NCBI RefSeq assembly: GCF_003018255.1
Contig: NZ_CP027440.1
Direction: 5' to 3' (one strand)
Origin: Escherichia coli
GTDB taxonomy: Bacteria > Pseudomonadota > Gammaproteobacteria > Enterobacterales > Enterobacteriaceae
Length of the DNA stretch: 64,000 bases
Numbering within the stretch: position 1 is the stretch's first letter; each line of letters opens with the position of its first letter. Positions 3,371-53,852 of the stretch are shown piece by piece. The notes beneath the pieces were generated by a model. The model ran no database searches, had not been told where the DNA came from, and saw nothing but the letters and a program-made list of their open reading frames with translations. The position numbers and the translations under genes were made by a program.

Positions 3371-4912
<1,542 letters not shown>

Positions 4913-4980
4913 CCTTAAAGAAGCGTACTTTGCAGTGCTCACACAGATTGTCTGATGAAAATGAGCAGTAAAACCTCTAC

Positions 4981-5057
<77 letters not shown>

Positions 5058-5099
5058 AATTTGCACGGCAAATTTGAAGAGGTTTTAACTACATGTTAT

Positions 5100-5175
5100 G
5101 GGGCTATAGCTCAGCTGGGAGAGCGCCTGCTTTGCACGCAGGAGGTCTGCGGTTCGATCCCGCATAGCTCCACCA
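5100..5175 (+). tRNA. alaV: tRNA-Ala (anticodon TGC)
   Basis: GGGGCTATAGCTCAGCTGGGAGAGCGCCTGCTTTGCACGCAGGAGG...CTCCACCA in the spacer. Confidence 0.95.
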
Positions 5176-5350
5176 TCTCTGTAGTGATTAAATAAAAAAT
5201 ACTTCAGAGTGTACCTGCAAAGGTTCACTGCGAAGTTTTGCTCTTTAAAAATCTGGATCAAGCTGAAAATTGAAACACTGAACAACGAAAGTTGTTCGTG
5301 AGTCTCTCAAATTTTCGCAACTCTGAAGTGAAACATCTTCGGGTTGTGAG

Positions 5351-8253
<2,903 letters not shown>

Positions 8254-16739: not shown

Positions 16740-16816
16740 GGAGCGGTAGTTCAGTCGGTTAGAATACCTGCCTGTCACGCAGGGGGTCGCGGGTTCGAGT
16801 CCCGTCCGTTCCGCCA
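16740..16816 (+). tRNA. aspV: tRNA-Asp (anticodon GTC); left boundary of the accessory island
   Basis: Sequence identical to the tRNA-Asp at 8519-8595. Confidence 0.95.
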
Positions 16817-16845
16817 AATTCACTCATGAAAATGAGTTCAGAGAA

Positions 16846-16877
16846 CCGCAAAAATTTTTATTTTTGCGGTTTTTTTG
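16846..16877 (+). terminator. Rho-independent terminator after the tRNA-Asp gene
   Basis: ccgcaaaaatttttatttttgcgg hairpin followed by a T-run. Confidence 0.5.
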
Positions 16878-17143
16878 TATTTGAATCCCGCCATTTCTCT
16901 GTTCAATGATTTTACTCTGGCGTAAGTGCGTAACTCTCGCTTGTTGTCTCATTTATTAAAATTCAATAATGATATCGAACCATTCAACTTAAATATATTT
17001 TTAGAGGATAATTTTATATTGATTAAATGAATGTATATTTCATGTTGATTTTGTTTGTTATTATTTAAGTGGGGTATATAATTAGAGTCCGTTATCAGTG
17101 CTAAATATTCTAATCATTATGACAGGCGAGGGAGTGTCCGATT

Positions 17144-17944
17144 ATGAATTCAAAAAAGGTTTGTTGCATATGTGTATTATTCTCGCTGCTTGCAGGATGT
17201 GCCTCTCAATCTTCTATTGATGAAAAAAAGAAAAAAGCTCAAGTTACACAAAGTAATATTAATAAAAACATTCCCCCGCAACTGACAGACAAAGATTTAT
17301 TCGGTAATGAAACCACTCTGGCTGTATCCGAGGAGGATATTCAGGCTGCGCTTGAAGGAGATGAGTTTCGTGTGCCTCTCAATTCTCCCGTAATACTTGT
17401 CCAGTCTGGCAGTCGCGCACCGGAAACCATTATGCAGGAGGAGATGAGAAAATATTATACTGTTTCCACATTCTCTGGTATCCCGGACAGGCAAAAGCCT
17501 CTGACTTGTAACAAAAATAAAGATAAAAATGAGAACGAGGATGTTGCCAGTGCTGAAAATATGAACTGGATGCAGGCATTGCGTTTTGTGGCTGCGAAAG
17601 GGCATCAGAAAGCGATTATTGTTTACCATGATACGTTGCAGACAGGAAAATATGACTCTGCGCTGAAATCAACAGTATGGTCCGACTATAAAAATGAAAA
17701 ACTCACTGACGCTATCTCCCTGCGCTACCTGGTACGTTTCACGCTGGTGGATGTGGCAACAGGTGAGTGGGCTACCTGGTCGCCGGTGAATTATGAATCG
17801 AGAGTAATTTTTCCGCCGGCTGGAATAACAAAAATGAGCAATAAAGAACTATCAAATGACCATGTTACGGAAGTGCAACTGTTTAATTTGAAACAAAAAA
17901 CATATGTATCGATGGTGAAAGACTTGGTGAGTCGATTCCAGTAA
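17144..17944 (+). CDS. yafT: Lipoprotein (YafT-like) encoded immediately downstream of aspV
   Basis: 266-aa ORF with signal peptide and lipobox (LLAGC); AT-rich; AT-rich promoter region upstream. Confidence 0.6.
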
Positions 17945-18068
17945 TCGTTATTGTTATGCTGCCGCCTGTAGTTTAGGGCGGGCAGCAAACAGGAGCTGAG
18001 TATTTCTATAATGTAAATATGTTTTTTTATAAAATTATAATATATATTGCCAGTGAATTGCATGTGAG

Positions 18069-18419
18069 TTATTTTTTTAATTCTTCATAAATTAAAATGG
18101 TATCATCTGCAATGGAAAGAATTGCTATTATCTCTTCATCTTTTTTATATTTTTCTTTTAATGTTTTGTTTCTTTCTTTTAATGGGGTACATTCATTAAT
18201 AATATCATTTTTAGCTGTCATTGAGTCAGTTTCGATATCGAATGCTAAATCTACAAAGCAATAATCTACGTAGAACATAAATCTACGTATATCTTCTGGT
18301 ATGGCTGTGGAAAAATAACGGTATTGCGTGTAAGTGGTTTGATCATCGAATTCGTCTGATTGTACTGAATATGTAATTGTGGCCAGTATAAATAGTAATG
18401 TTAATTTTATAATAATCAT
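18069..18419 (-). CDS. Small secreted protein, function unknown (possible second immunity protein; may correspond to the small yafU-type gene found at this locus)
   Basis: 116-aa ORF with N-terminal signal peptide, two Cys; 4-nt overlap with the upstream ORF; AT-rich. Confidence 0.45.
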   Translation of the reverse strand: MIIIKLTLLFILATITYSVQSDEFDDQTTYTQYRYFSTAIPEDIRRFMFYVDYCFVDLAFDIETDSMTAKNDIINECTPLKERNKTLKEKYKKDEEIIAILSIADDTILIYEELKK

Positions 18420-18871
18420 TTGCTGGATATCTCATCTGGATTTTGAAAATCTGAAATGTAAGCATTGTTTAGTTGCATGGCTCTTATTTTGTTTAACTCA
18501 GTATAGCATGGATATAGTCGAGAGAATGCCAGACGTCCTACTCTGGCCCCCCAGGTTAGAGCAAAAGAGCATTGAGCAAATCTGTAACGTATAAATTCCC
18601 GATTAGAAGATTCTAGTCTTTTTAAAGAAATAACTGCTTCTTTTCTTATTGCTTCGTCCTCATCGTTATTCCATTTTTTAATTTTCTCTTTTATATTTAC
18701 TTCTGCTTTTTTAAGTGTAATAGTGCTCATAATAAATGAATTTTTAACACAATCAACAAATTCAAGTTCATCAACGCCACTACATTCTTTAGACATGGAA
18801 ATGTCAAATGCCAGACATTTTGTACATGAGAATGTAAGCAGTAGAATAATTGTTATTTTTCCCATTCTCAT
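18416..18871 (-). CDS. Small periplasmic protein, candidate T6SS immunity protein (DUF1311/LprI-like pattern)
   Basis: 151-aa ORF with signal peptide; C-terminal YRFAQCSFALTWGARVGR...LYPCYTELNKIRAMQL resembles the Cys/Trp/Arg pattern of lysozyme-inhibitor-like DUF1311 proteins; translationally coupled to the upstream candidate effector. Confidence 0.45.
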   Translation of the reverse strand: MRMGKITIILLLTFSCTKCLAFDISMSKECSGVDELEFVDCVKNSFIMSTITLKKAEVNIKEKIKKWNNDEDEAIRKEAVISLKRLESSNREFIRYRFAQCSFALTWGARVGRLAFSRLYPCYTELNKIRAMQLNNAYISDFQNPDEISSK

Positions 18872-19764
18872 AACACTCTGTTTTTTGTGAGCAATGTATA
18901 AACGAACTGAAGTTTTATTGCATACTTGGGATCTCCACCACCATTATAATTCATCGCTACATTTTTTATTGTGATAGGTTTCCATCCAGTAATTATTACT
19001 TTCATGGATGCTTTTTGATAATATAAAATATCTCCCGGGTGTATTTTATCGAGATTTTTTCCAGGGTTGTTTTTCGTTAAGTTAGGTATGGTCGTTTTTC
19101 TCTCTTTTCTGATGTTGTCAGCCAAATCGCCTTTTTGGACGATGACGCTATATAGAGTTGAGTCATATTGATCGATAGTTGATTCTTCCTTTGTATTAGA
19201 AAGTTTCATCATTAAGTAAGTAATTGCTGCTTTGATATTCTCTTCTGGAGAGCCAGTTATTTGTTCTTTTGCCCAGTAATTTCTTTCTGGATCTTTTAAC
19301 CCATTGAATGCTTTGTTTCTCCATTGTGGTGGGGTAACAAGGGCTGCGGATTTTTCTCCAGAGATTAAAGCAGGCATCGCTTTATCTTTCCGAAAACGAC
19401 CAATTTGTAATGGATAACCATTCCACTGAGAAGTATTTGCCGCATCGTTTTCAGTCCAAAGCATGGCTTTTATTATATACCAATCCAACGGCTGAAAGTA
19501 TGGAGTGCTGGACAAATGAATGTTGATTTCATTAACAGATTTTAAAATTAATAAGTCATATTTATTCCATTCTTTATGATTGCTCACAAATGCCAACTCT
19601 CTTATTTTTTTCCATTTAAAAAAATCACTTTCATCTTCTGTTATTCTTGATGCGAAATCTTGCCTTAGTTGAAATGGGAATTTTTCATTAAATAACGTAC
19701 TGTCAGTGCTTGTATTTTTGCTTTCACTGTCTGATGTTGAAGAGTGTAAAATATTGTTAGCCAT
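18868..19764 (-). CDS. Candidate T6SS effector; weak lytic-transglycosylase/lysozyme-like and LysM-like motifs
   Basis: ORF 18868-19806, likely start ATG 19764 (MANNIL...); no signal peptide; motifs LWTEN, GYPLQIG, MNYNGGGD and YSVIVQKGDLADNI...IHPGDILYY; directly downstream of an Hcp-family gene; AT-rich. Confidence 0.4.
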   Translation of the reverse strand: MANNILHSSTSDSESKNTSTDSTLFNEKFPFQLRQDFASRITEDESDFFKWKKIRELAFVSNHKEWNKYDLLILKSVNEINIHLSSTPYFQPLDWYIIKAMLWTENDAANTSQWNGYPLQIGRFRKDKAMPALISGEKSAALVTPPQWRNKAFNGLKDPERNYWAKEQITGSPEENIKAAITYLMMKLSNTKEESTIDQYDSTLYSVIVQKGDLADNIRKERKTTIPNLTKNNPGKNLDKIHPGDILYYQKASMKVIITGWKPITIKNVAMNYNGGGDPKYAIKLQFVYTLLTKNRVL

Positions 19765-19784
19765 TATAATAATCCCAGATATTT

Positions 19785-20264
19785 TTAAAAAAGACGATCT
19801 TCCCATAAACTGTATGCACTAGTGCCAGCGGAACAATGCTCCCATATAATTGACTCATAACTGAAAGAAACTGACTCTTCGGGTTGAATGCTGTTATCAA
19901 CAACAATATGTGATATAGAGACATGAATGTCGCTTATCTTTGCTCCAGTTAATTTGATTTTATAGTACAGTTCATTAATTCCAAATTTATTTGTACGATA
20001 AAAGGAAAAGTCACATGTCAATAATTCATTGTCGCAAATTGCTTTGCCTAATAAGGGTGATGCTTTATCTATAGGTTTTTTTATTGTCAAATGATGATGG
20101 TTGACGTTTTGATCTCGATTTAATCCATGCATGAATTCATAAATCATAATTTGATCAATGTGTGCTGTTTGAGCTTTATTTCCAATGGATGGTTGTGATG
20201 AACAACCACTTGAAATGAGCCCTTGATTATCACCATTTAGTGTTAAATAAATTAAATTCGCCAT
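19785..20264 (-). CDS. Hcp-family protein (second, divergent Hcp/TssD paralogue)
   Basis: 159-aa ORF with Hcp-like signature (MANLIYLTLNGDNQG..., KPIDKASPLLGKAI, ESVSFSYESIIWEH); AT-rich, unlike the core hcp at 40376. Confidence 0.7.
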   Translation of the reverse strand: MANLIYLTLNGDNQGLISSGCSSQPSIGNKAQTAHIDQIMIYEFMHGLNRDQNVNHHHLTIKKPIDKASPLLGKAICDNELLTCDFSFYRTNKFGINELYYKIKLTGAKISDIHVSISHIVVDNSIQPEESVSFSYESIIWEHCSAGTSAYSLWEDRLF

Positions 20265-20290
20265 TTAAAACTCCTTTGTATTCATGAATG

Positions 20291-21640
20291 TTATTGAAAT
20301 TCAATGTCTTTTTTTATCGTCGGTATCGTATTATTCTTCAGCAGCAGCCAGCGACTTAACACGCCGTCCATCCGCTCGTTAATCTGTTTTTCCAGCGCAT
20401 CTGTATTCTGCTTCTGCGCACGGGCATCCTGGTACTGCGTCAGCAGGGATTCCAGAGGTGTTTCCTGCCCCAGTCCCCGCTCCGCCTGCCAGATGACATT
20501 TTTGATATAGGAAAGGGTTAATCCCTCTTTCTCGCGCTGCATCACGAGATCAGCAAAAGCATGTAAGTCCTGGCGGGTCTGCAACCAGCCGCGCAACTGT
20601 GGGCTACTCTGTGCGCGGGTTTTGAGTGCCTCATTCCATTGTGTCGAGGCCTGCTGCTGTTGCAGGCTTTCCGGCCAGCGACTGTCGGCAACACGCATCA
20701 TCTGCATCCCGGTTTCCAGCGGTTGTACCGGGGAGACGCCAAGAAGCTGATGCAGCCTGCGCTCATAGTTTTCAAGTTCAGGTGAGGCCATCCACACCGT
20801 TGCTGCGCCCTGCGCGGTGTCGTTAACCTGTAACAGTTGCTGCTGCGCCGGATAGACCTGCCACCACCACAATGCTGAGGCGATAGCCACTGAACAGACG
20901 ATCCCTGCGATAAACCCTCTTACCGTACTGCCTTGCTTCATCACACTGGCCTGTGGGGGATTTTCTGACAGACTGCGCACTTCCACTTTCATCTCAGGCA
21001 GGTCGGGCAGGGGAGGCACTACCGCTTCTGGCGTGGAGGAAGCCATTGTTTCCGGGGCATAAATCAGCGTTCTGACCGTGGTCTGTGCGGCGTTCTCTGC
21101 GTTACTCTTCGGCTGGGGTTCAAGCCGTTTACGCGTGTTCTGCATAAAATAGAGTAGATTCTCCACGCGCGGAACGCGCTTCAGCTCTACCTGCTGGAGC
21201 TTGTCGCAGATAAGCTGCAATGCCCGCTCTGTGCGGTAGATCAGTGGTAGGTCGGATTCCGCAAAGGAGATTTGCTGACGCAGAATATTGCCGGTTCGGG
21301 AGTTAAACCAGTCCAGCATTTCAGTACGCGCCGGACCGCCCTGTGGCCAGAACTTATCCCAGTCGTGGCTTACCATTGCCGCCAGCAGTTCCGCACCTTC
21401 GCAAAAGCCCGCCAGTCCCTGTGTCCGTGTCCGTGCAAGCGTATAGTAGGTGGCGGTGTGTAAATCCACACCGTTAGCTTTAAAAATCGCCAGCGCCAGC
21501 GACTCCACCAGTTTCCAGTTCAGCTCAGGCTGTGACGGGTGGCTGGCTTTGTTTATTTCCTCGCGAATGGCGCTGAATTCCGGCAGCCCGCGCGGGTCAC
21601 TGCCGGTAACGATAGTTTGTGTCAGTACGTTACTATTCAT
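20291..21640 (-). CDS. T6SS VasL-like protein (ImpA-type N-terminal domain, central transmembrane segment, C-terminal periplasmic domain)
   Basis: ORF 20291-21730 trimmed to ATG 21640 (MNSNVLTQ...) with RBS; N-terminus SDPRGLPEFSAIREEINK...NWKLVESLALAI is ImpA_N-like; TM segment GFIAGIVCSVAIASALWWW; follows tssM. Confidence 0.6.
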   Translation of the reverse strand: MNSNVLTQTIVTGSDPRGLPEFSAIREEINKASHPSQPELNWKLVESLALAIFKANGVDLHTATYYTLARTRTQGLAGFCEGAELLAAMVSHDWDKFWPQGGPARTEMLDWFNSRTGNILRQQISFAESDLPLIYRTERALQLICDKLQQVELKRVPRVENLLYFMQNTRKRLEPQPKSNAENAAQTTVRTLIYAPETMASSTPEAVVPPLPDLPEMKVEVRSLSENPPQASVMKQGSTVRGFIAGIVCSVAIASALWWWQVYPAQQQLLQVNDTAQGAATVWMASPELENYERRLHQLLGVSPVQPLETGMQMMRVADSRWPESLQQQQASTQWNEALKTRAQSSPQLRGWLQTRQDLHAFADLVMQREKEGLTLSYIKNVIWQAERGLGQETPLESLLTQYQDARAQKQNTDALEKQINERMDGVLSRWLLLKNNTIPTIKKDIEFQ

Positions 21641-21650
21641 CCCTGCCTCC

Positions 21651-24600
21651 TCAGTACAGTGTGTCTGACAGACCAAACTGGCTGAACAACCCACCGCTGA
21701 ACGGGTTATCCTCGGTGTCGGTATGCACACGGTAGGTCATCGCGCCACCGTCCACGCTAAAGCGCACGGTAAAGTTGCCATCCTGTACTCCGGTCAGTTG
21801 TCCGGCCCCGAACAGGCGGAACTGCGCCCACGGCCCGCTGAAGCTGATACTGCGCGGCGCGTTGCCGCTGGTGCCGATGAGCGTCAGCTTACTTTCGTTG
21901 CCTTCGCGCATGTTGTTAGGCCAGACCAGATGGGCGGTATAGTTACGGCCCTGGCTGTAATCGACTAACTGACCGTCAAGGTTCAGTACACTGCGGCGTT
22001 TATTGCCGGAAAGCGATACCGTTTCCACGGCAAAGGATGTTCCCAGACCGTTCTGTTTGCTGAAGAAGATGTCACGGATTTTCTGCGCAGTTTCCAGTTG
22101 CGCAATAATATCTTCGCGAATAATGACGTTGTTATCGCCATCCTCCAGACTCAGGTCATTATCGATAAACAGCTTCAGGTTCTGCTGGTAGAAGGTATCC
22201 AGTATGCCATCCGGTTTAAAGAAGCGTTCGAAGGCATCCAGTGAGGCATCCTGTGCAGAACGCGGATTAAACGGATAGTTATTTGCCAGTTGCTCGTTAA
22301 ACGGTTTCACCACGCTGTCGCGCCAGTCCACTTCCATATAATGAACAGCCTCCACCATCACCACATGCCAGGCCTGGTCAGTCAGTCTGCCAACCCAGCG
22401 GTTGAGCGGAGCAGGCAGCGTTTTTGCCATCTGGCGGGTGGCGAATATCGGATCGCTGCTGTTCTGATCAAGCCGTAACTGCACGGCTTTCAGCGCCGAT
22501 TTCCCTGGTACAGGCGCGTTCTGGATTGCCAGCAGGTAGCGGTGCAACTCGGTGAGTTGCTGATACACGGCCTGCATCGTGCTTTCTTTGTCTTTCTGTA
22601 CTGCCAGGGTACTGTTTTCCGGGGCGAATTCATGCCCGAGGCGGGTGAGTAACTGGTAATCCGGCTCTGCCAGGGCTTCCTCCCGTTCTTTGGCAGAGAG
22701 TTTTTCAGAAAAGACGCCTGGCTGTGTGTTGTCACGCAGCACGGTCAGCGCCCGCTGCAAAGGCTGGTCGCCGCTGATAACCTGCTCCAGCGCCCCGGTC
22801 AGTTGTCCGATGGACTCAAAATTGCGGATATTCAGATTGTCCATCCCGGCCCGCCAGGTGGCGGTGTAGTCGCTGATATACTGCTCGGTCAACTGGTGCT
22901 GGATTTCCGCACGGTCGGCGTCACTGTATTTCACACTGCGGGTGAGGTTAAGTACCCAGGAATCCATCGCTGTCAGTTCAACCAGTTCATCGCGCTGTTT
23001 TACAAAATAGCTTTGCAGGCCATAGCGGGTGATAAACTGTGGAACAACCAGTTTGTTGTCATCGGCAGATGTAAACACCTGGTCAAAGGTTGGCCCTACC
23101 TGGTCACGCAGATTGAGGTCAGCAGGAAGAACGCCCAGCGCCCGCGTTTTCAGGCTCTGATAAACCCGCTGGTAGACAGGCAGTTTGCTCAGTTCTTTCT
23201 GTGCTGATACCACGAGCTTGTCATATGGCGTCCAGCGGCTGATGGCGTCACCGTCGCCCGCCTGACGCTCTGCATGCCAGTCAGTATGAGCCAGCGCGTA
23301 GTCAAGATGGGACATCAGTTGTGCCTGGATATCGCGCTGGCCGTGGAATTTTTCGCTCCAGCGTTTTGCCATATACTGCTTCACCACCTCATTATTGCGT
23401 CCGCTTTTGTCCTCCAGCATTCGCATCACACGCAGCACGGCGAGTTTTTCCTCACTCTCCGGCGGCGCGGCGTTCATCGCTTTGACCAGCCCGTTAAACA
23501 GCGAAGGCAGGTAACGCTGCTCCAGCAGTTGCAGATAGGTTTGTTCCACATAAGGCCCGATACGCCGTCCCTGGTACAGTCCCATATCGGCCAGACGGCT
23601 GCGGTCGCCCCAGTCGCCATAGGCCAGCGTGGCATCGCGTACCGGGTTCAGCAGCGGCAGTTGCAGGTTGCCGTAATCATCTTCCCCCAGCGGAGGCGGT
23701 ACATCCATAAAGGCTTTTGCCTGCTTAAGCACGGTGATGCCGGACTGATAGTTACCGTTGTAATAGTGATGCCAGCCGGTGATGAGCAGCAGTGCCGCCA
23801 CGCCTCCTGTGGTAGAGAAAACCGTTAGGCGGCGACGGGAACGCATCAGCCAGGTGCGGCTTTCTGTTGCCAGATTAGGCTCTGCGAGTAATGCCTGCGG
23901 GAACAGGCCACGGGTGAAATAAGGCGCGGTGTCCACCAGGGGCCAGGACGCCAGTGGGTTATTGCCCAGCCGGTACTGGCGGGCGGCAGACTGGGTGAAA
24001 ATATCATCCATCTGTCCGCGTTGAAGCGAAGAGGTGAGATAGATACCACGCAGCATCACGTTCATATTTTCGCCGTCAAGCAGACCCTCAAGCAGTGACA
24101 CCAGCGGTTCACGGCTTCCCTGCATCTGGCGGGAAAAACTAAATAAAGACGCGCGGGTGTGAGTCTGAGCGACCATCAGATCCGGCAACGCTAGGTTCAT
24201 TCGATCCACCCATGTCTGCCAGAAAGCATTCAACTCTGTTCGCCAGTCATCATTTTCATGGGCGCGGTGGGTGAACGTGACCCCTAGAATTGCATCGCGA
24301 TCCTGTCTGTTCAGTGACTGGAACAGGGCGGCAAAACCCTGCAATAAATCAAGCCGGGTGAGTACCACGTAAACCGGTAACTGGCAGTGAAGATGCTGGC
24401 GTATATCCTGCAAGCGGCTGCGCAGCGTCTGTAACAGATGCTCGCGGCGGCGTTTGTCTGCGGTAAGCAGATCGGGTAAATCCAGTGTCAGAATAATCCC
24501 GTTCAGCGGCTGGCGCGCGCGCTTTTCTTTCAGCCAGCCGAGGGCATGTTCCCACAGACGGCGATGCAGGATATCCGCATCAGCGGGAGCGCAGAGTGTG

Positions 24601-25175
24601 CCGTCGATATCAAAGATCACCGCCTGTTTACCGACATGGGGCGTGAGGTACAGGCGTTGTTCTGCGCCGCGTGCGCCCTCCGGGGCATAAATAATGTCGG
24701 ACGGAAAACCCTCGCGCAGCAGTGTCGTTTTGCCACTGCCCGCCGGGCCGATGACCATATACCACGGCAACTGCCACAGGAAACGGCGGTTGTCGAGATG
24801 GCGTTGCAGGCGCAGCAGCCAGCGGTCAAGGTAACGCTGCTGGGCGTTCAGCTCCACACTGAGCGGATCAATGGCCTCCTCGCGCTGCTGCTTTTGCATT
24901 TTTTCAAGCTGTTGCAGGCGCTTCATCACCCGGACGGTAAGCCACACTAGGGCGATAATCCCCCATGCCGCCGTTGCCAGCCAGCGGTTCGCCAGTGGTT
25001 TGAGCCACTGTTCTTCATACAGCGTCCATGTCGGGCCTTTCCACCAGATCCATACCAGCAGAAAAATCCACGCCAGTATCAGCAGCCAGAAAGCGGAGAC
25101 TTTAAACCGGGGCATCGCCGGGCGTAGGGCTGATTTGAGTCCGCTGAGTAGTCGGGGTGTTGGTAATCTGAACAC
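21651..25175 (-). CDS. tssM: T6SS membrane core component TssM (IcmF family)
   Basis: 1174-aa ORF with N-terminal TM helices and Walker A GPAGSGKTT; size typical of IcmF/TssM. Confidence 0.9.
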   Translation of the reverse strand: MFRLPTPRLLSGLKSALRPAMPRFKVSAFWLLILAWIFLLVWIWWKGPTWTLYEEQWLKPLANRWLATAAWGIIALVWLTVRVMKRLQQLEKMQKQQREEAIDPLSVELNAQQRYLDRWLLRLQRHLDNRRFLWQLPWYMVIGPAGSGKTTLLREGFPSDIIYAPEGARGAEQRLYLTPHVGKQAVIFDIDGTLCAPADADILHRRLWEHALGWLKEKRARQPLNGIILTLDLPDLLTADKRRREHLLQTLRSRLQDIRQHLHCQLPVYVVLTRLDLLQGFAALFQSLNRQDRDAILGVTFTHRAHENDDWRTELNAFWQTWVDRMNLALPDLMVAQTHTRASLFSFSRQMQGSREPLVSLLEGLLDGENMNVMLRGIYLTSSLQRGQMDDIFTQSAARQYRLGNNPLASWPLVDTAPYFTRGLFPQALLAEPNLATESRTWLMRSRRRLTVFSTTGGVAALLLITGWHHYYNGNYQSGITVLKQAKAFMDVPPPLGEDDYGNLQLPLLNPVRDATLAYGDWGDRSRLADMGLYQGRRIGPYVEQTYLQLLEQRYLPSLFNGLVKAMNAAPPESEEKLAVLRVMRMLEDKSGRNNEVVKQYMAKRWSEKFHGQRDIQAQLMSHLDYALAHTDWHAERQAGDGDAISRWTPYDKLVVSAQKELSKLPVYQRVYQSLKTRALGVLPADLNLRDQVGPTFDQVFTSADDNKLVVPQFITRYGLQSYFVKQRDELVELTAMDSWVLNLTRSVKYSDADRAEIQHQLTEQYISDYTATWRAGMDNLNIRNFESIGQLTGALEQVISGDQPLQRALTVLRDNTQPGVFSEKLSAKEREEALAEPDYQLLTRLGHEFAPENSTLAVQKDKESTMQAVYQQLTELHRYLLAIQNAPVPGKSALKAVQLRLDQNSSDPIFATRQMAKTLPAPLNRWVGRLTDQAWHVVMVEAVHYMEVDWRDSVVKPFNEQLANNYPFNPRSAQDASLDAFERFFKPDGILDTFYQQNLKLFIDNDLSLEDGDNNVIIREDIIAQLETAQKIRDIFFSKQNGLGTSFAVETVSLSGNKRRSVLNLDGQLVDYSQGRNYTAHLVWPNNMREGNESKLTLIGTSGNAPRSISFSGPWAQFRLFGAGQLTGVQDGNFTVRFSVDGGAMTYRVHTDTEDNPFSGGLFSQFGLSDTLY

Positions 25176-25193
25176 AAAAACTCCTGTTCTCTT

Positions 25194-26606
25194 TTATTGT
25201 TCTGCCGTGAATTTTTGTTCAAGCTGCGTAAGTAATGATGGCTCCCAATCAGACACCATCATCTGACTCCCTATCATCAACAACATCCGGTACTGTTGCT
25301 GCGCAAGCTGTATCAGCCCCGCCTCCTCCGTCAACTGTGCGGCAAGGTACTGGCGGTGAAACTGATCGCGGGGATCGCCTTCGGGTAGCATGTCCAGATA
25401 TCGCAGCGCCGCCTCCAGACCCTGCCCAGCAAAACAGGCTCTGGCTGCCTGCGATTCCTCACCGATTTGCGCAACCGGTGCAACTTTGCCGTCGGGCGAA
25501 GCTGCCAGCCATTGTTTCGTCTGCTCACTGAGAAACGGTGTGCGGTCATTAAACAGCAGCCCGGTAAGCTGGGGCAGACGCTCAAGGAAGCGGATGACCT
25601 CATCGCGGATGGTGTCTGCCACCTGTTTGTAACCCAGACGCAGTGCCGTCTGTGCAGAAAGACAGTGACCGTCCAGCCAGTAAGGAGCCAGCAATACGCT
25701 TTTCTCAACCTGCTGCCACAGCGCCATATCCGCGCTGGCAAGCCGGGACTGGTAATCCGCCACCATATCGGCAGAGACCGCAGCCAATGGGGTACGTCCA
25801 TCGCTTTCCGCCTGGGGTGTACTGGTGATGGATTGCCACAGGGCATGGCGGCGCAGGCGATAGCCCTGCGGCGAGTCCGGCTGGCGTTCACATAAAATAG
25901 CCGCCACTTTTAACAGCGTGTCGCGCCAGGCTTTGTCGTCGTGACTGTCGATGGCGATTTGGGGAGCCGGAGCACTGGGTTGCGTCACGCCGCTTTCAGA
26001 CGTGGCGGTGGTCTGTCGTGAACTATCGGAGGCCGCCGGAGTGGGGGCAGGAGCCGGTGCCGCACGATTAAACGCACGCTGGTACAGGGCAAAAAGATCA
26101 TCGGTAGCCAGTGCCAGTTCCGGGGCGTTATATGACTGCCAGCACTGCGCCAGTTTCGCCAGTTCCCCTGACAGCGCGTCGTGCTGCGCTGTGGCGGCGT
26201 TCTGTGAAAAGCCTTCAATACCTGTTTCAAAGCGTTTAATGACCTGGCTGGCAAAGCGTTTTTTATGTGCCATATTCTGCGGCGCAGCCACCGACCAGTA
26301 ATGCTCCACATACAGCGCCAGCAGGCGCAATGCGAGATGAGGATCACCGGCGTGTTGCAGGGTTCTCAGCAGATGCGCCAGCAGACGAAAGTCCTTACTC
26401 TCCGAAGCCAGAATGACCAGCCCCCGGCGCTGGAGTTCCGGGATATCCAGTTGACTGTGGGCCAGAGATCCCAGTTTGACGATTTCGCCGTCGATATACT
26501 CCCAGTCCGGGTTGTCATCTTTCAGCGCCGATGCCAGTTTTTCTTCCGGCAGGTTTTCCAGCAGGTGCGATATCCAGACATTCGGATCGCGTAAGTTCAT
26601 TGCCAT
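25194..26606 (-). CDS. tssA: T6SS protein TssA (ImpA N-terminal domain family)
   Basis: ORF 25194-26672 trimmed to ATG 26606 (MAMNLRDPNVW...) with RBS GGGAGAA; ImpA_N-like N-terminus; lies between vasI-like and tssM. Confidence 0.8.
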   Translation of the reverse strand: MAMNLRDPNVWISHLLENLPEEKLASALKDDNPDWEYIDGEIVKLGSLAHSQLDIPELQRRGLVILASESKDFRLLAHLLRTLQHAGDPHLALRLLALYVEHYWSVAAPQNMAHKKRFASQVIKRFETGIEGFSQNAATAQHDALSGELAKLAQCWQSYNAPELALATDDLFALYQRAFNRAAPAPAPTPAASDSSRQTTATSESGVTQPSAPAPQIAIDSHDDKAWRDTLLKVAAILCERQPDSPQGYRLRRHALWQSITSTPQAESDGRTPLAAVSADMVADYQSRLASADMALWQQVEKSVLLAPYWLDGHCLSAQTALRLGYKQVADTIRDEVIRFLERLPQLTGLLFNDRTPFLSEQTKQWLAASPDGKVAPVAQIGEESQAARACFAGQGLEAALRYLDMLPEGDPRDQFHRQYLAAQLTEEAGLIQLAQQQYRMLLMIGSQMMVSDWEPSLLTQLEQKFTAEQ

Positions 26607-26610
26607 ATTT

Positions 26611-27354
26611 TTATTCTCCCGCCCAGTGGCAGGCAACGCGCAGGGGGGCAATCGCCCTTGCCAGCCCGTCAATGTTAAAGGTCAGCTTTCCTGCGGCGTT
26701 ATCTGCGCCGGTATCCACTGTCAGCGTTTTTGCGCCGAACAGTTGCTTAATTTCATCAATCCCGGACAGCCCCCGGCTGGACTCCAGCAGGGTGCCGTTC
26801 TCGCGCACAAACCAGTGGCTACGCAATGCCCGGCTGTCGGCATTCAGAGTGACGGCGATATCATGGACATCCAGAGGGTGCATCAGCGCCACCTGCATCC
26901 GGGTGATATTGTCCACGCAACTGAACATCAGCACCGGGCGCGGCGGAACATGGCCGATAGCCGGGGTGGTTATCACCACCGTCGGGCGCTCCCCCGGCAC
27001 CTGCGTCACCAGCAGTTCTGTGGTGTTGCCCTCGCGGCGTTTTTCCTGCTCTGTGGCGCGGGTCCAGGCCTCGCCCACAAAACCGGCTTTGACCAGCGCC
27101 CCGTCAAACCCTGACGGGGACAGCGGTGCCAGCAGGCGGTCATAGCAGTCAAGCCGCTCCAGCGCCGCGGACTCCCGCCGACAGGACTGCATGGCCTGTA
27201 ACGTGGCTGTCGCATCCGGCGGGGGCGTGGTGGCGACGGCGACCGCCACACCGGCCATTGACGATGTTTCTGCGGGCGCGGCAGTGGCGGGTAAGCCCGT
27301 CATCAGGCCCGCGATAAACCATCCTGTCTGCCGGAAAACGCGCAACCTGCTCAT
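26611..27354 (-). CDS. T6SS-associated periplasmic protein (VasI-like by position)
   Basis: 247-aa ORF with signal peptide; sits between clpV and tssA as vasI does in Vibrio-type clusters; 4-nt overlap with clpV. Confidence 0.5.
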   Translation of the reverse strand: MSRLRVFRQTGWFIAGLMTGLPATAAPAETSSMAGVAVAVATTPPPDATATLQAMQSCRRESAALERLDCYDRLLAPLSPSGFDGALVKAGFVGEAWTRATEQEKRREGNTTELLVTQVPGERPTVVITTPAIGHVPPRPVLMFSCVDNITRMQVALMHPLDVHDIAVTLNADSRALRSHWFVRENGTLLESSRGLSGIDEIKQLFGAKTLTVDTGADNAAGKLTFNIDGLARAIAPLRVACHWAGE

Positions 27355-48017: not shown

Positions 48018-49306
48018 AGGGAAAGATCACGCAACGCTGCTTTTTTGTACTAATTAATTCGCATTTTATGTTTAAAAATTGAGATATTCCTCATTACCTA
48101 AAGCTGTTTTTTATTGCTTATACATGATCAAATACTCCTTACATAATTAAGGAGAACAAAATGGAACTTAAAAAATTGATGGAACATATTTCTATTATCC
48201 CCGATTACAGACAAGCCTGGAAAGTGGAACATAAATTGTCGGATATTCTACTGTTGACTATTTGTGCCGTTATTTCTGGTGCAGAAGGCTGGGAAGATAT
48301 AGAGGATTTTGGGGAAACACATCTCGATTTTTTGAAGCAATATGGTGATTTTGAAAATGGTATTCCTGTTCACGATACCATTGCCAGAGTTGTATCCTGT
48401 ATCAGTCCTGCAAAATTTCACGAGTGCTTTATTAACTGGATGCGTGACTGCCATTCTTCAGATGATAAAGACGTTATTGCAATTGATGGAAAAACGCTCC
48501 GGCATTCTTATGACAAGAGTCGCCGCAGGGGAGCGATTCATGTCATTAGTGCGTTCTCAACAATGCACAGTCTGGTCATCGGACAGATCAGGACGGATGA
48601 GAAATCCAATGAGATCACAGCTATCCATGAACTTCTTAACATGCTGGATATTAAAGGAAAAATCATCACAACTGATGCGATGGGTTGCCAGAAAGATATC
48701 GCAGAGAAGATACAAAAACAGGGCGGTGATTATTTATTCGCTGTAAAAGGAAATCAGGGGCGGCTTAATAAAGCCTTTGAGGAAAAATTCCCACTGAAAG
48801 AATTAAATAATCCAGAGCATGACAGTTACGCAATTAGTGAAAAAAGTCACGGCAGAGAAGAAATCCGTCTTCACATTGTTTGCGATGTCCCTGATGAACT
48901 TATTGATTTCATGTTTGAATGGAAAGGTCTGAAGAAATTATGCGTGGCAGTCTCCTTTCGGTCAATAATAGCAGAACAAAAGAAAGAGCCCGAAATGACG
49001 GTCAGATATTATATCAGTTCTGCTGATTTAACCGCAGAGAAGTTCGCCACAGCAATCCGAAACCACTGACACGTGGAGAATAAGCTGCACTGGCGTCTGG
49101 ACGTGGTAATGAATGAAGACGACTGCAAAATAAGAAGAGGAAACGCCGCAGAATTATTTTCAGGGATACGGCACATCGCTATTAATATTTTAACGAATGA
49201 TAATGTATTCAAGGCAGGGTTAAGACGTAAGATGCGAAAAGCAGCCATGGACAGAAACTACCTGGCGTCAGTCCTTGCTGGGAGCGGGCTTTCGTAATCT
49301 TTCCCT
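48018..49306 (+). mobile_element. ISAs1-family insertion sequence (H-repeat type), copy 1, 1289 bp
   Basis: Terminal inverted repeats AGGGAAAGATCACG...CGTAATCTTTCCCT; same length and ends as copies 2 and 3; no flanking direct repeat. Confidence 0.75.
48161..49297 (+). pseudogene. ISAs1-family transposase (H-repeat-associated protein) interrupted by an in-frame TGA at 49067-49069
   Basis: ORFs 48161-49069 and 49073-49297 together match the intact 378-aa copies; RNH-stop-HVENK here versus RNHWHVENK in copies 2 and 3 (TGG to TGA). Confidence 0.7.
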
Positions 49307-49349
49307 GGCGTCAGTCCTTGCAAGGAGCGGGCTTTCGTAATCTTTCCCT
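49307..49349 (+). repeat. Partial tandem duplication (about 43 bp) of the IS right terminus
   Basis: cgtcagtccttgcaaggagcgggctttcgtaatctttccct repeats the last about 40 bp of the IS immediately after copy 1. Confidence 0.6.
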
Positions 49350-49769
49350 GGGCGGTATATCATCCAGGACTCGATTGGGCTGAAGGGGGGATGGAATCTG
49401 TACCAATATCCGCTGAATCCAGTGCAACACGTTGATCCATTAGGGCTTAGTACTATGATAATAGGTAACGGCCCCGTTCCTGATAATCCTTTTGGGCATG
49501 CTGCGGCGGCAAATCGATATGGATTAATGAGTTCGGGAACTGGGGATGAGATGGGAGCCTCTGTCTCTGATTATTTTAAAAAGATGCAACCCCGCAGAGA
49601 TACCTGGATTTGGATAATAGATACAACAGATGAAGAAGAACAATGTATGATGAATAAGGCAATAGACCTTAATAAAAAACTAAAAACTATTAACCTCGGG
49701 CCTCTTCCTGTTTTAAATAATTGTTTTAGCCGAACGAACATGATTTTTGAGGCGTGCGGGTTTAACAAC
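49350..49769 (+). pseudogene. Orphan rhs 3' fragment (core-end motif plus C-terminal toxin domain), lacking a 5' region and interrupted by IS copy 2
   Basis: In-frame translation [33 protein letters not shown] then toxin domain (ORF 49422-49805) running into the IS at 49770; homologous to the main rhs core end. Confidence 0.6.
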
Positions 49770-51058
49770 AGGGAAAGATCACGTAACGCTGCTTTTTTGT
49801 ACTAAATAATTCGCATTTTATGTTTAAAAATTGAGATATTCCTCATTACCTAAAGCTGTTTTTTATTGCTTATACATGATCAAATACTCCTTACATAATT
49901 AAGGAGAACAAAATGAAACTTAAAAAATTGATGGAACATATTTCTATTATCCCCGATTACAGACAAGCCTGGAAAGTGGAACATAAATTGTCGGATATTC
50001 TACTGTTGACTATTTGTGCCGTTATTTCTGGTGCAGAAGGCTGGGAAGATATAGAGGATTTTGGGGAAACACATCTCGATTTTTTAAAACAATATGGTGA
50101 TTTTGAAAATGGTATTCCTGTTCACGATACCATCGCCAGAGTTGTATCCTGTATCAGTCCTTCAAAATTTCACGAGTGCTTTATTAACTGGATGCGAGAT
50201 TGCCATACTTCAGATGATAAAGACGTTATTGCAATCGATGGAAAAACACTCCGGCATTCTTATGACAGGAGTCGCCGCAGGGGAGCGATTCATGTCATTA
50301 GTGCGTTCTCAACAATGCACAGTCTGGTCATCGGACAGATCAGGACGGATGAGAAATCTAATGAGATTACAGCTATCCCAGAACTTCTTAACATGCTGGA
50401 TATTAAAGGAAAAATCATCACAACTGATGCGATGGGTTGCCAGAAAGATATTGCAGAGAAGATACAAAAACAGGGCGGTGATTATTTATTCGCTGTAAAA
50501 GGAAATCAGGGGCGGCTTAATAAAGCCTTTGAGGAAAAATTCCCACTGAAAGAATTAAATAATCCAGAGCATGACAGTTACGCAATTAGTGAAAAAAGTC
50601 ACGGCAGAGAAGAAATCCGTCTTCACATTGTTTGCGATGTCCCTGATGAACTTATTGATTTCATGTTTGAATGGAAAGGTCTGAAGAAATTATGCGTGGC
50701 AGTCTCCTTTCGGTCAATAATAGCAGAACAAAAGAAAGAGCCCGAAATGACGGTCAGATATTATATCAGTTCTGCTGATTTAACCGCAGAGAAGTTCGCC
50801 ACAGCAATCCGAAACCACTGGCACGTGGAGAATAAGCTGCACTGGCGTCTGGACGTGGTAATGAATGAAGACGACTGCAAAATAAGAAGAGGAAACGCCG
50901 CAGAATTATTTTCAGGGATACGGCACATCGCTATTAATATTTTAACGAATGATAAGGTATTCAAGGCAGGGTTAAGACGTAAGATGCGAAAAGCAGCCAT
51001 GGACAGAAACTACCTGGCGTCAGTCCTTGCAGGGAGCGGGCTTTCGTAATCTTTCCCT
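49770..51058 (+). mobile_element. ISAs1-family insertion sequence (H-repeat type), copy 2, 1289 bp, flanked by a 12-bp direct repeat
   Basis: Same inverted repeats as copy 1; GGGTTTAACAAC present at 49758-49769 and 51059-51070. Confidence 0.8.
49913..51049 (+). CDS. ISAs1-family transposase (H-repeat-associated protein), intact
   Basis: 378-aa ORF ([25 protein letters not shown]...); about 98% identical to the copy 3 protein. Confidence 0.8.
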
Positions 51059-51196
51059 GGGTTTAACAACCCCTCTATGAATACAAATGCGCCTATAAGC
51101 CTACAAGTGCTCGGTGAGCTTTATGGATATCAAAGATATATTATGCCTAAAGGTCCTTTCACTGGATTCCCATTTGAATTTCAAGAGGTAAAGTAA
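51059..51196 (+). pseudogene. 3' tail of the orphan rhs C-terminal toxin gene displaced by the IS copy 2 insertion
   Basis: Continues the upstream frame exactly after one copy of the direct repeat: GFNNPSMNTNAPISLQVLGELYGYQRYIMPKGPFTGFPFEFQEVK-stop, with stop TAA abutting the next ATG. Confidence 0.55.
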
Positions 51197-51595
51197 ATGG
51201 AAATGCTTGGGAAGATATTAGTGATAATTATTTCCATGATAATTATATCTTGTGATTATTATAATGCTGGCATGGACTATCAAGATAATATAGCCCTCGA
51301 GCAAGTCGTAACATGGGATTCTGATAATATATTCACACCTAATATCTTTGAACATAATGGAAGATGTTTTATGAAGAAAAATGAAACATGGATGTTATTA
51401 AATGGAGATGCAACACCAAACATTAGAACAATGAGCAATAAGAAAATAGAATGCCTGGAGAAGAGTGAAGTAGAATGGGCTAGTAGGGTTTGCGACAGTA
51501 TCACAGACAAGGAAAGGGAAAATCTGAAGGCATTAATATGTAGCAAACCAGCTAAATCAGTTAATACAGGCAAAAGACCAGCGTTAGGATATTGA
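51197..51595 (+). CDS. Putative immunity protein for the orphan rhs C-terminal toxin
   Basis: 132-aa ORF starting at the toxin stop (TAAATG); hydrophobic N-terminus; AT-rich, typical of rhs immunity genes. Confidence 0.45.
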   Translation: MEMLGKILVIIISMIIISCDYYNAGMDYQDNIALEQVVTWDSDNIFTPNIFEHNGRCFMKKNETWMLLNGDATPNIRTMSNKKIECLEKSEVEWASRVCDSITDKERENLKALICSKPAKSVNTGKRPALGY

Positions 51596-51639
51596 AACCG
51601 GCACTGCACTCTATCACTATTACAATATTCTGAGTGACT

Positions 51640-51732
51640 AGAGCAACTGCTCCGCCATCCGGGCTAGCAGTATGACGACGAATCCGAACTGCACTACAAC
51701 TGGCACCGGTACTACAATCCGGGACAGGGACT
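51640..51732 (+). pseudogene. Degenerate rhs core-end remnant truncated by IS copy 3
   Basis: actgcactacaactggcaccggtactacaatccgggacaggg is about 75% identical to the main rhs core 3' region around 46916-46960 and stops at the IS left end. Confidence 0.4.
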
Positions 51733-53021
51733 AGGGAAAGATCACGCAACGCTGCTTTTTTGTACTAAATAATTCGCATTTTATGTTTAAAAATTGAGAT
51801 ATTCCTCATTACCTGAAGCTGTTTTTTATTGCTTATACATGATCAAATACTCCTTACATAATTAAGGAGAACAAAATGGAACTTAAAAAATTGATGGAGC
51901 ATATTTCTATTATCCCCGATTACAGACAAGCCTGGAAAGTGGAACATAAATTGTCGGATATTCTACTGTTGACTATTTGTGCCGTTATTTCTGGTGCAGA
52001 AGGCTGGGAAGATATAGAGGATTTTGGGGAAACACATCTCGATTTTTTGAAGCAATATGGTGATTTTGAAAATGGTATTCCTGTTCACGATACCATTGCC
52101 AGAGTTGTATCCTGTATCAGTCCTGCAAAATTTCACGAGTGCTTTATTAACTGGATGCGTGACTGCCATTCTTCAGATGATAAAGACGTTATTGCAATTG
52201 ATGGAAAAACGCTCCGGCATTCTTATGACAAGAGTCGCCGCAGGGGAGCGATTCATGTCATTAGTGCGTTCTCAACAATGCACAGTCTGGTCATCGGACA
52301 GATCAGGACGGATGAGAAATCCAATGAGATCACAGCTATCCATGAACTTCTTAACATGTTGGATATTAAAGGAAAAATTATCACAACTGATGCGATGGGT
52401 TGCCAGAAAGATATCGCAGAGAAGATACAAAAACAGGGCGGTGATTATTTATTCGCTGTAAAAGGAAATCAGGGGCGGCTTAATAAAGCCTTTGAGGAAA
52501 AATTCCCACTGAAAGAATTAAATAATCCAGAGCATGACAGTTACGCAATTAGTGAAAAGAGTCACGGCAGAGAAGAAATCCGTCTTCACATTGTTTGCGA
52601 TGTCCCTGATGAACTTATTGATTTCATGTTTGAATGGAAAGGTCTGAAGAAATTATGCGTGGCAGTCTCCTTTCGGTCAATAATAGCAGAACAAAAGAAA
52701 GAGCCAGAAATGACGGTCAGATATTATATCAGTTCTGCTGATTTAACCGCAGAGAAGTTCGCCACAGCAATCCGAAACCACTGGCACGTGGAGAATAAGC
52801 TGCACTGGCGTCTGGACGTGGTAATGAATGAAGACGACTGCAAAATAAGAAGAGGAAATGCAGCAGAATTATTTTCAGGGATACGGCACATCGCTATTAA
52901 TATTTTAACGAATGATAATGTATTCAAGGCAGGGTTAAGACGTAAGATGCGAAAAGCAGCCATGGACAGAAACTACCTGGCGTCAGTCCTTGCTGGGAGC
53001 GGGCTTTCGTAATCTTTCCCT
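51733..53021 (+). mobile_element. ISAs1-family insertion sequence (H-repeat type), copy 3, 1289 bp
   Basis: Same inverted repeats; followed by a partial (about 27 bp) duplicate of the right terminus; no flanking direct repeat. Confidence 0.75.
51876..53012 (+). CDS. ISAs1-family transposase (H-repeat-associated protein), intact
   Basis: 378-aa ORF, near-identical to copy 1 but without the premature stop. Confidence 0.8.
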
Positions 53022-53081
53022 GGGGGAGCGGGCTTTCGTAGTCTTACCCTGACTCTCCCCAGCCCTAAACACAACCCCCAC

Positions 53082-53852
53082 TCACCACAACCTAAACTCA
53101 TCCGCATCCCGCCATGCCGGAAACTTTTCTCTATATTCCCGCAATGCCATCATCGACAGCTCCGCATCAATGCGCGTTGCCTGATGCGCGTCGGCAGTAG
53201 CGATAATCTCGCCTTGCGGATTAATCACCCGGCTGTCACCGCGATAATGGCAGCCGTTGCCATCGCTGCCGACGCGATTGCATCCCGCCACATACGCTTG
53301 ATTCTCAATCGCGCGGGCTGTCAGCAATGCCTGCCAGTGCAGAGAGCGCGGAGCAGGCCAGTTGGCGACGTACAGGGCGAGGTCATAATCGTTGAGATTG
53401 CGCGACCACACCGGAAAACGTAAGTCGTAGCACACCAGCGGCAAAATACGCCAGCCGCGCCATTCCACAATCACTCGCTCATTGCCCGCTTTATAATGCA
53501 GATGCTCATCTGCCATGCGGAACAGATGACGCTTATCATAAAAATGTACCGTGCCGCCCGGCTCAACCAGCAAAAAGCGGTTAACCGAACCAGACTCCGT
53601 TTGTAATGCAACACTGCCTGCAATCAGCGCATTGCACTGCTGCGCTTTAGCGGTCATCCAGTTCACTACGTCATCTTGTGCTAGCGACGAAGCTGCCGCT
53701 TCCATGGCAAAGCCGCTGGTAAACATCTCCGGTAGAACGATCACATCGCGCCCGGTAATACCTTCCAGTTGACGATCAAAATGGCGCAGGTTGGCAGGAC
53801 CATCCATCCACACCAGTGGTTGCTGCAAAAGCGTAATCTTCAAACCAGGCAC
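53082..53852 (-). CDS. yafV: Nitrilase-superfamily amidase (omega-amidase, YafV type)
   Basis: ORF 53082-53861 trimmed to GTG 53852 with AAGGAG RBS; carbon-nitrogen hydrolase motifs (VLPEMF, CYDLRFP). Confidence 0.85.
   Translation of the reverse strand: MPGLKITLLQQPLVWMDGPANLRHFDRQLEGITGRDVIVLPEMFTSGFAMEAAASSLAQDDVVNWMTAKAQQCNALIAGSVALQTESGSVNRFLLVEPGGTVHFYDKRHLFRMADEHLHYKAGNERVIVEWRGWRILPLVCYDLRFPVWSRNLNDYDLALYVANWPAPRSLHWQALLTARAIENQAYVAGCNRVGSDGNGCHYRGDSRVINPQGEIIATADAHQATRIDAELSMMALREYREKFPAWRDADEFRLW

Follow-up and report, generated by a model that had tools for sequence, protein, structure and literature searches.

The 64,000-nucleotide window of the Escherichia coli chromosome analysed here (contig NZ_CP027440.1, assembly GCF_003018255.1) runs from metNI, gmhB, rrnH, aspU and dkgB through dnaQ and the tRNA gene aspV to yafV, ivy and fadE, and between aspV and yafV it carries a type VI secretion system (T6SS) gene cluster. 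A yafT-like gene on the plus strand is followed by cargo and T6SS genes on the minus strand, a divergent gap of 696 bp, a plus-strand hcp-vgrG-rhs-immunity arm and a tail of insertion sequences (IS). An earlier note, made from the letters alone, had placed a T6SS core set, a divergent hcp-vgrG-rhs arm, an AT-rich tail and three IS copies in this interval, and all of them are found where it put them. We are confident that this is the chromosomal E. coli T6SS-2 in the nomenclature of Journet & Cascales, of the Vibrio cholerae-like subtype i1, situated at aspV and equipped with an Rhs toxin arm, and that it bears a tssH lesion which probably impairs the apparatus. Gene calls combine NCBIfam scans with the Prokaryotic Genome Annotation Pipeline (PGAP) annotation of strain JNE23-011, the closest complete genome (99.8% identity over 16.5-41 kb and 99.1% over 40-54.5 kb). 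The two anchors and the T6SS core are as follows.

16740..16816, plus strand: aspV tRNA-Asp(GTC), left anchor (ARAGORN; Rfam tRNA)
19785..20264, minus strand: hcp (tssD), the tRNA-proximal copy (TIGR03344, 198 bits)
20291..21640, minus strand: vasL, TssA-like, a second tssA (annotation, NCBIfam)
21651..25115, minus strand: tssM (IcmF), intact (TIGR03348, 942 bits)
25194..27354, minus strand: tssA and vasI (TIGR03362, 497 bits; TIGR03360, 256 bits)
27351..30139, minus strand: tssH/clpV pseudogene (split ORF, NCBIfam)
30148..39679, minus strand: tssL, tssK, tssJ, tagH (FHA), tssG, tssF, tssE, tssC, a 68-aa open reading frame (ORF) and tssB (PGAP annotation of JNE23-011; NCBIfam for TssL and TagH)
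39680..40375, no strand: AT-rich divergent tssB/hcp intergenic region, presumed to be the promoter region (composition)
53082..53852, minus strand: yafV, right anchor (annotation)

The minus-strand genes thus run hcp, vasL, tssM, tssA, vasI, tssH, tssL, tssK, tssJ, tagH, tssG, tssF, tssE, tssC, the 68-aa ORF and tssB. All 13 core tss genes are present in the annotation, and NCBIfam models score above their cut-offs for TssM, TssA, TssL, Hcp (two copies), VgrG, VasI, TagH and the C-terminal part of TssH. The large cluster of Vibrio cholerae is ordered tssB-tssC-tssE-tssF-tssG-fha-tssJ-tssK-tssL-clpV-vasI-tssA-tssM-vasL. The window shares this order (vipA to vasL) and differs from V. cholerae in lacking the sigma-54 activator VasH, in the divergent placement of its hcp-vgrG-rhs arm, and in its effectors. 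The absence of vasH follows from the 4-nt overlap of tssH and vasI, which leaves no space for it. A Vibrio-like order without vasH had been proposed in the earlier note, and the annotation, the NCBIfam scans and this overlap bear it out; its description of the core set as complete holds for gene presence but not for intactness, since tssH is split by a 19-bp deletion and VasL is about 20 codons shorter at its end than VasL of O157. A promoter consensus scan of the tssB/hcp intergenic region returned sites no more numerous than in shuffles.

The Vibrio-like order with tagH, vasI, vasL, a second hcp and rhs 3′ of vgrG agrees with the published description of T6SS-2 (PMC10711316), as does the chromosomal site adjoining aspV (PMC8715443, PMC5363993). 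What the window does not offer is an intact frame for every core gene, and the tssH and vasL defects bear on function in this strain rather than on membership in the locus type. As judged from what is known of these families, the minus-strand operon would specify the membrane complex (TssJLM), the baseplate (TssEFGK), the sheath (TssBC), TssA, VasL, TagH and the recycling ATPase ClpV/TssH, and the plus-strand arm would supply the Hcp tube, the VgrG spike and the Rhs cage protein. The toxin that forms the variable C-terminal part of Rhs would be neutralised in sibling cells by the downstream lipoprotein, and the second Hcp, at the tRNA end, is predicted to carry lysozyme-fold/LysM cargo paired with an LprI-like immunity candidate.

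The tssH lesion

Relative to JNE23-011, 19 bp are missing at position 29648, bounded by TGC microhomology. On one side of the deletion lies an N-domain ORF of 165 aa (30139..29642, TssH model positions 4-148) and on the other an AAA+ body ORF of 778 aa (29687..27351, TssH model positions 164-851), and because the frameshift falls between these two parts the T6SS apparatus is probably impaired in this strain. A 38-nt probe across the deletion junction has zero matches among the 5,426 complete E. coli genomes that make up our population survey; a 65-nt junction query was uninformative, with BLAST joining both 30-nt halves in genomes that do not have the deletion. The lesion is either private to the strain or an assembly error.

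Several points weigh against an impaired apparatus. The deletion could be an assembly error, all of the other core genes are intact, and the 778-aa fragment by itself scores 1021 bits against the TssH family cut-off of 885. Moreover, loss of ClpV in V. cholerae lowers T6SS activity and does not abolish it, so that ClpV is not strictly required there, according to the summary given in PMC12981562, and some residual T6SS function despite the loss of ClpV is possible. The locus could then be functional, with the frameshift an artefact of sequencing or assembly, or bypassed by a restart at the GTG at 29687 that yields the 778-aa fragment beside a separate N-domain. We consider this unlikely: a loss of 19 bp is atypical of homopolymer-type sequencing errors, its size and the TGC microhomology favour a real slippage event, the junction is seen in none of the surveyed genomes, and the N-domain is the sheath-recognition module, whose separation from the ATPase body should, from what is known of the family, block sheath recycling. 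We therefore favour an impaired apparatus. Also within tssH is an in-frame (TCTGAC)9.7 array (28534-28591), two units longer than in JNE23-011, and repeat indels in both tssM and clpV have been described in the degeneration of the O157 cluster (PMC12981562).

Known relatives of the locus

The cluster has been met under several names and in several pathotypes, being called T6SS-2 in most papers, PMC12981562 and PMC7216683 among them, and 'subtype i1 T6SS/1' in PMC5422975. In enterohaemorrhagic E. coli (EHEC) EDL933 a 37-kb aspV-associated T6SS cluster is repressed by H-NS and secretes Hcp and KatN (PMC5363993), and the EHEC island has been analysed in silico (PMC7216683); pathogenicity island PAI I of LF82 lies at aspV (PMC2941450), as do Ec042-0210-0226 of enteroaggregative strain 042 (PMC2808357). 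The O157:H7 cluster is 96.9% identical over 24.5 kb, from dnaQ to hcp, at the same locus and in the same order and orientation, and shares with the window both the hcp-vgrG-rhs arm and the Hcp-linked cargo, consisting of a DUF1311 protein and a protein of 198 aa. It differs in having an intact tssH and a 28-bp repeat insertion in tssM (annotated as 'frameshifted' by PGAP; PMC12981562), in its Rhs C-terminal toxin, in its immunity genes, which encode ankyrin and Sel1 proteins, and in its orphan tail.

T6SS-2 of sequence type ST410 comprises rhsG, FHA, two tssA and two tssD genes, and has rhsG-tssM and tssD-tssA deletions (PMC10711316). The clusters of ST410-A/H53 and ECC-1470 resemble that of the window in their 13 tss genes, second tssA and tssD, FHA gene, and rhs 3′ of vgrG (PMC10711316, PMC8715443, PMC5422975), and the rhsG-tssM deletion derivatives are also found among the genomes surveyed here; the toxin tail is strain-specific, and the private tssH deletion belongs to the window. 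The variants typified by ECC-1470 and by avian pathogenic E. coli (APEC) O1 occupy the same tRNA-Asp and are mutually exclusive (PMC8715443). APEC O1, S88 and UTI89 agree with the window in slot and gene order, in having yafT at the tRNA end and in having ISAs1 sequence, as remnants, beside yafV, but there is no Hcp-linked cargo, and VgrG is followed by DUF2169 and Cpe1/Cpi1 rather than by Rhs. The locus, its lack of an integrase, the two mutually exclusive variants and repeated loss are already documented (PMC5363993, PMC2941450, PMC2808357, PMC8715443, PMC10711316); only the private tssH frameshift is peculiar to this strain.

Further afield, Salmonella SPI-6 and SPI-20 are also T6SS islands at aspV with non-uniform GC content, SPI-20 having no obvious direct repeats (PMC2907695), although they belong to other T6SS phylogenetic groups and have other gene orders. 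The K-12 elements RhsA-E share with the window a GC-rich core, the DPxGL motif, an AT-rich and variable toxin at the C terminus accompanied by a small immunity ORF, and also orphan C-terminal fragments and ISAs1/H-repeats. The vgrG-rhs part of the window matches the RhsE-type (ydcC/ydcD) locus found in other strains at about 95-96% identity. The window Rhs differs from those of K-12 in still being linked to vgrG, hcp and a T6SS.

Boundaries, population states and mobility

The 3′ end of aspV points toward the cluster, and comparison with genomes that have an empty site places the variable segment from about 16817-16823 to about 53094. Homology to two such genomes, strains p4A and E13, is lost a few bases past aspV and returns at about 53095, within the final codons of yafV; the four codons that end that gene (53085-53094) are themselves part of the polymorphic segment and differ between genomes with an island or remnant and those with an empty site. 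The earlier note had put the right boundary just outside yafV; the segment in fact runs into the gene. The core has a GC content of 51-64%, compared with 40-56% in the flanking genes, and a third-position GC content (GC3) of up to 0.76, while both ends are AT-rich (27-41% GC), with 0.27-0.34 in the Hcp-linked cargo and 0.28-0.40 in the Rhs toxin, immunity gene and orphan ORF. GC and codon usage were among the checks that the earlier note had suggested. No Rfam RNA family is found within the island. The Rfam matches outside it, naRNA4 (REP-type) elements downstream at 60439-60516 and 61175-61252 and StyR-44 in the rrn spacer at 5243-5342, are usual in E. coli.

In 2,030 of the 5,426 genomes (37%) the 18-kb core is present to at least 80%, and 3,455 have some core match. 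About 580 (roughly 11%) have only a divergent variant (60-90% identity, summarised as 70-80%) at the same site, and in 757 (14%) the junction is empty, with yafV 98 bp after aspV, as in p4A and E13. The remaining genomes hold remnants, in a graded truncation series that includes tssM-Rhs junctions; other states of the site are an IS1-mediated near-total deletion and an unrelated island beginning exactly at the aspV end. The interval is neither identical nor universal across E. coli, and this grading from presence to emptiness supports the view of the earlier note that it is an accessory island at a gain/loss hotspot.

A species scan with VasL as query, using one genome per species, finds the cluster tail (tssK through tssM, vasL, hcp, cargo and yafT) in Citrobacter, Phytobacter, Atlantibacter, Trabulsiella, Yokenella, Superficieibacter, Lelliottia and E. 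whittamii. The cluster type lies 3′ of different tRNA genes in different genera: of tRNA-Asp with dnaQ-rnhA neighbours in E. whittamii, Pseudocitrobacter and Superficieibacter, and of tRNA-Phe or tRNA-Ser at other loci. In strain S88 (phylogroup B2) the slot is occupied by a cluster with the architecture seen in the window; its flanks are 97.7-97.9% identical to those of the window, but its core only 69-80%. The S88 variant is 90-97% identical at the amino acid level to E. whittamii, whereas the window variant (phylogroups A/B1/E) has no relative above about 86-89% among the species representatives. From these comparisons we infer that at least one of the two variants entered by replacement via the conserved flanks, and the window variant may represent replacement of the whole cluster from outside Escherichia. 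VasI (26611-27354) is 88-95% identical in amino acid sequence to its counterparts in E. whittamii, Pseudocitrobacter and the S88 variant, whereas the neighbouring tssA, tssM and vasL products are only 71-79% identical, which suggests a mosaic recombination patch within the cluster. One metagenome-assembled genome, 'Citrobacter sp.' HRGM_Genome_0066, has contigs matching both variants (98% amino acid identity to the window and about 99-100% to S88) and is probably a chimeric or contaminated bin.

How such a locus moves is the question on which explanations differ. A classical island, still mobile by tyrosine-integrase excision and integration at aspV, would account for its position at a tRNA 3′ end, its deviant composition and variable presence, its occurrence beside tRNA-Asp, tRNA-Phe and tRNA-Ser in other genera, and the unrelated islands that start precisely at the aspV 3′ end in other E. 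coli (FEA3). The constant placement 3′ of tRNA genes hints at an ancient integrase-mediated origin, a point that counts against our own reading. However, there is no tyrosine integrase beside the tRNA: none is annotated in the 99.8%-identical JNE23-011, in O157:H7 F6667 or in S88, and the largest unannotated gap is 696 bp. Nor is there a tRNA 3′-end direct repeat at the distal boundary, since searches of the window with the final 26 nt of aspV, allowing up to 3 mismatches, and with its final 16 nt, allowing up to 2, matched nothing but aspU and aspV, and the spacer at empty sites is unrelated sequence rather than a clean att scar. The earlier note had reported neither an integrase nor a duplicated tRNA 3′ end, and the annotation and this search, which covers the right boundary, agree. 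We regard a still-mobile island as highly improbable; with no integrase and no att sites, the locus is not a mobile integrative element today.

A composite transposon, or a unit moved by its ISAs1 copies, is more improbable still. Three near-identical ISAs1 copies with terminal inverted repeats are present, but all of them sit in the Rhs orphan tail, at one end of the cluster and in direct orientation, with none on the aspV side; IS of this family also go with Rhs elements elsewhere, and the S88 variant has IS remnants only. We have rejected both models, the active integrative island for want of an integrase and att sites and the composite transposon because the IS copies are confined to one end. 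The reading that we favour is a fixed chromosomal slot, in which lineages would swap the cluster by homologous recombination through the yafT/aspV/dnaQ flank on one side and the ISAs1/yafV flank on the other, and in which internal deletions, with Rhs, IS and other sequences at their ends, would wear the cluster down, K-12 being one end product.

Effector modules and the relics in K-12

The features at the tRNA-proximal end, and those of the plus-strand arm and IS tail, are listed here from left to right.

17144..17944, plus strand: YafT-like lipoprotein (annotation; no Pfam match)
18069..18871, minus strand: two small AT-rich genes, candidate immunity genes, one for a 116-aa protein with a signal peptide and one for a 151-aa LprI/DUF1311-like protein (PGAP names)
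18868..19806, minus strand: candidate effector linked to Hcp (298-312 aa), combining a lysozyme/lytic-transglycosylase-like fold with a LysM domain
40376..43212, plus strand: hcp (tssD) and vgrG (TIGR03344, 207 bits; TIGR03361, 630 bits)
43279..47487, plus strand: Rhs core protein, 1,402 aa (family matches, composition)
47499..47894, plus strand: candidate cognate immunity gene 'dsORF-e4', predicted lipoprotein (PGAP name; sequence)
47916-48014: IS1 fragment
48018-49308, 49770-51061 and 51733-53024, plus strand: three direct ISAs1/H-repeat copies of about 1,291 bp (alignment, annotation)
49350-49805: orphan Rhs C-terminal fragment, between ISAs1 copies
51197-51595: orphan 132-aa ORF, between ISAs1 copies

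The Rhs protein has the structure of a polymorphic toxin, with an N-terminal PAAR-like segment, DUF6531, RHS/YD repeats and a DPLGL motif (consensus PxxxxDPxGL); beyond the motif come a variable, AT-rich toxin and then a small immunity ORF. The RHS_core and Rhs_assc_core matches stop at residue 84 of the final 228 aa, and GC3 falls from 0.76 to 0.22 at the transition from core to toxin. The AT-rich, Gly-rich toxin of about 145 aa begins at about 47050, and a Pfam search with it gave no family match; the lipoprotein gene behind it is compatible with a toxin that acts on the envelope or membrane. The ISAs1 copies are mutually 97-99% identical; each measures about 1.3 kb, is bounded by terminal inverted repeats and has a single transposase gene (product about 378 aa), which in copy 1 has an internal stop. 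The right end of the element is tandemly duplicated after copy 1 (43 bp x 2.1, 49261-49351, the extra unit being missing from JNE23-011) and duplicated after copy 3 (29 bp x 2, 52995-53066); these duplicated ends look like scars of earlier H-repeat recombination.

At the opposite end, PGAP divides the candidate effector gene into a 198-aa coding sequence and a pseudogene fragment, although the ORF itself is continuous. The LprI-like protein (18416-18871) has a weak Pfam LprI match (E 0.007). Homologues of both small genes lie in the same place in the Citrobacter youngae and Atlantibacter loci, and homologues of the cargo cassette are in the same position in these and in Yokenella and Superficieibacter. 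The lysozyme-fold/LysM protein and the LprI-like lipoprotein look like a candidate effector-immunity pair, so far uncharacterised. They may belong with the T6SS peptidoglycan glycoside-hydrolase effectors (Tge/Tse3-like), which combine a lysozyme-like fold and a catalytic Glu with a neighbouring gene for a periplasmic immunity protein. Pfam has no family for YafT, but in many genera of Enterobacteriaceae the tRNA-proximal end of such clusters usually has a YafT homologue, regardless of which tRNA gene is next to it. Because it travels with the cluster in this way we count yafT as a cluster member, and in this respect depart from the earlier note, which had assigned it to the content of the K-12 interval. 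It is a tentative proposal, and one that we hold somewhat less likely than not, that the tRNA-proximal end forms a conserved Hcp-linked effector-immunity module with YafT as a conserved T6SS accessory lipoprotein, and that the window variant was imported whole from outside Escherichia.

The K-12 interval between aspV and yafV contains yafT, ykfM, a truncated pseudogene and an ISAs1 fragment, much as the earlier note had described it (yafT, two small genes and an H-repeat remnant). K-12 follows the window sequence as far as 17798, a point inside yafT, and rejoins it 280 bp before the end of ISAs1 copy 3. In strain EC21Z-078 the order is aspV, yafT, ykfM, a 304-aa gene of full length, hcp, vasL and then remnants of tssM and rhs, and ykfM and the yafU pseudogene of K-12 (K-12 locus 17330-18175) match the cargo pair that is complete there (locus 4566-5969). 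Because EC21Z-078 retains the full version together with hcp-vasL, ykfM and the yafU fragment are, on this comparison, an alternative Hcp-linked cargo, and yafF is an IS remnant; as read from these alignments, the K-12 site is not empty: it is a decayed copy of the cluster, and the interval consists of its relics alone.

As a discovery the locus matters little; it offers modest leads in the candidate Hcp-linked effector, in YafT as part of the cluster and in the question of where the two variants came from, and its value lies in practical points about the strain, the K-12 relics and an effector candidate. The private tssH frameshift fits the published theme of T6SS-2 degeneration, and the probable impairment of the T6SS matters for any phenotype ascribed to this strain. 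The Hcp-linked lysozyme-fold/LysM protein is a reasonable effector candidate. The K-12 genes between aspV and yafV are best read as relics of a T6SS-2 cluster, and if YafT is a T6SS accessory lipoprotein then yafT, ykfM and yafU of K-12 would be the relics of a lost T6SS rather than independent genes.

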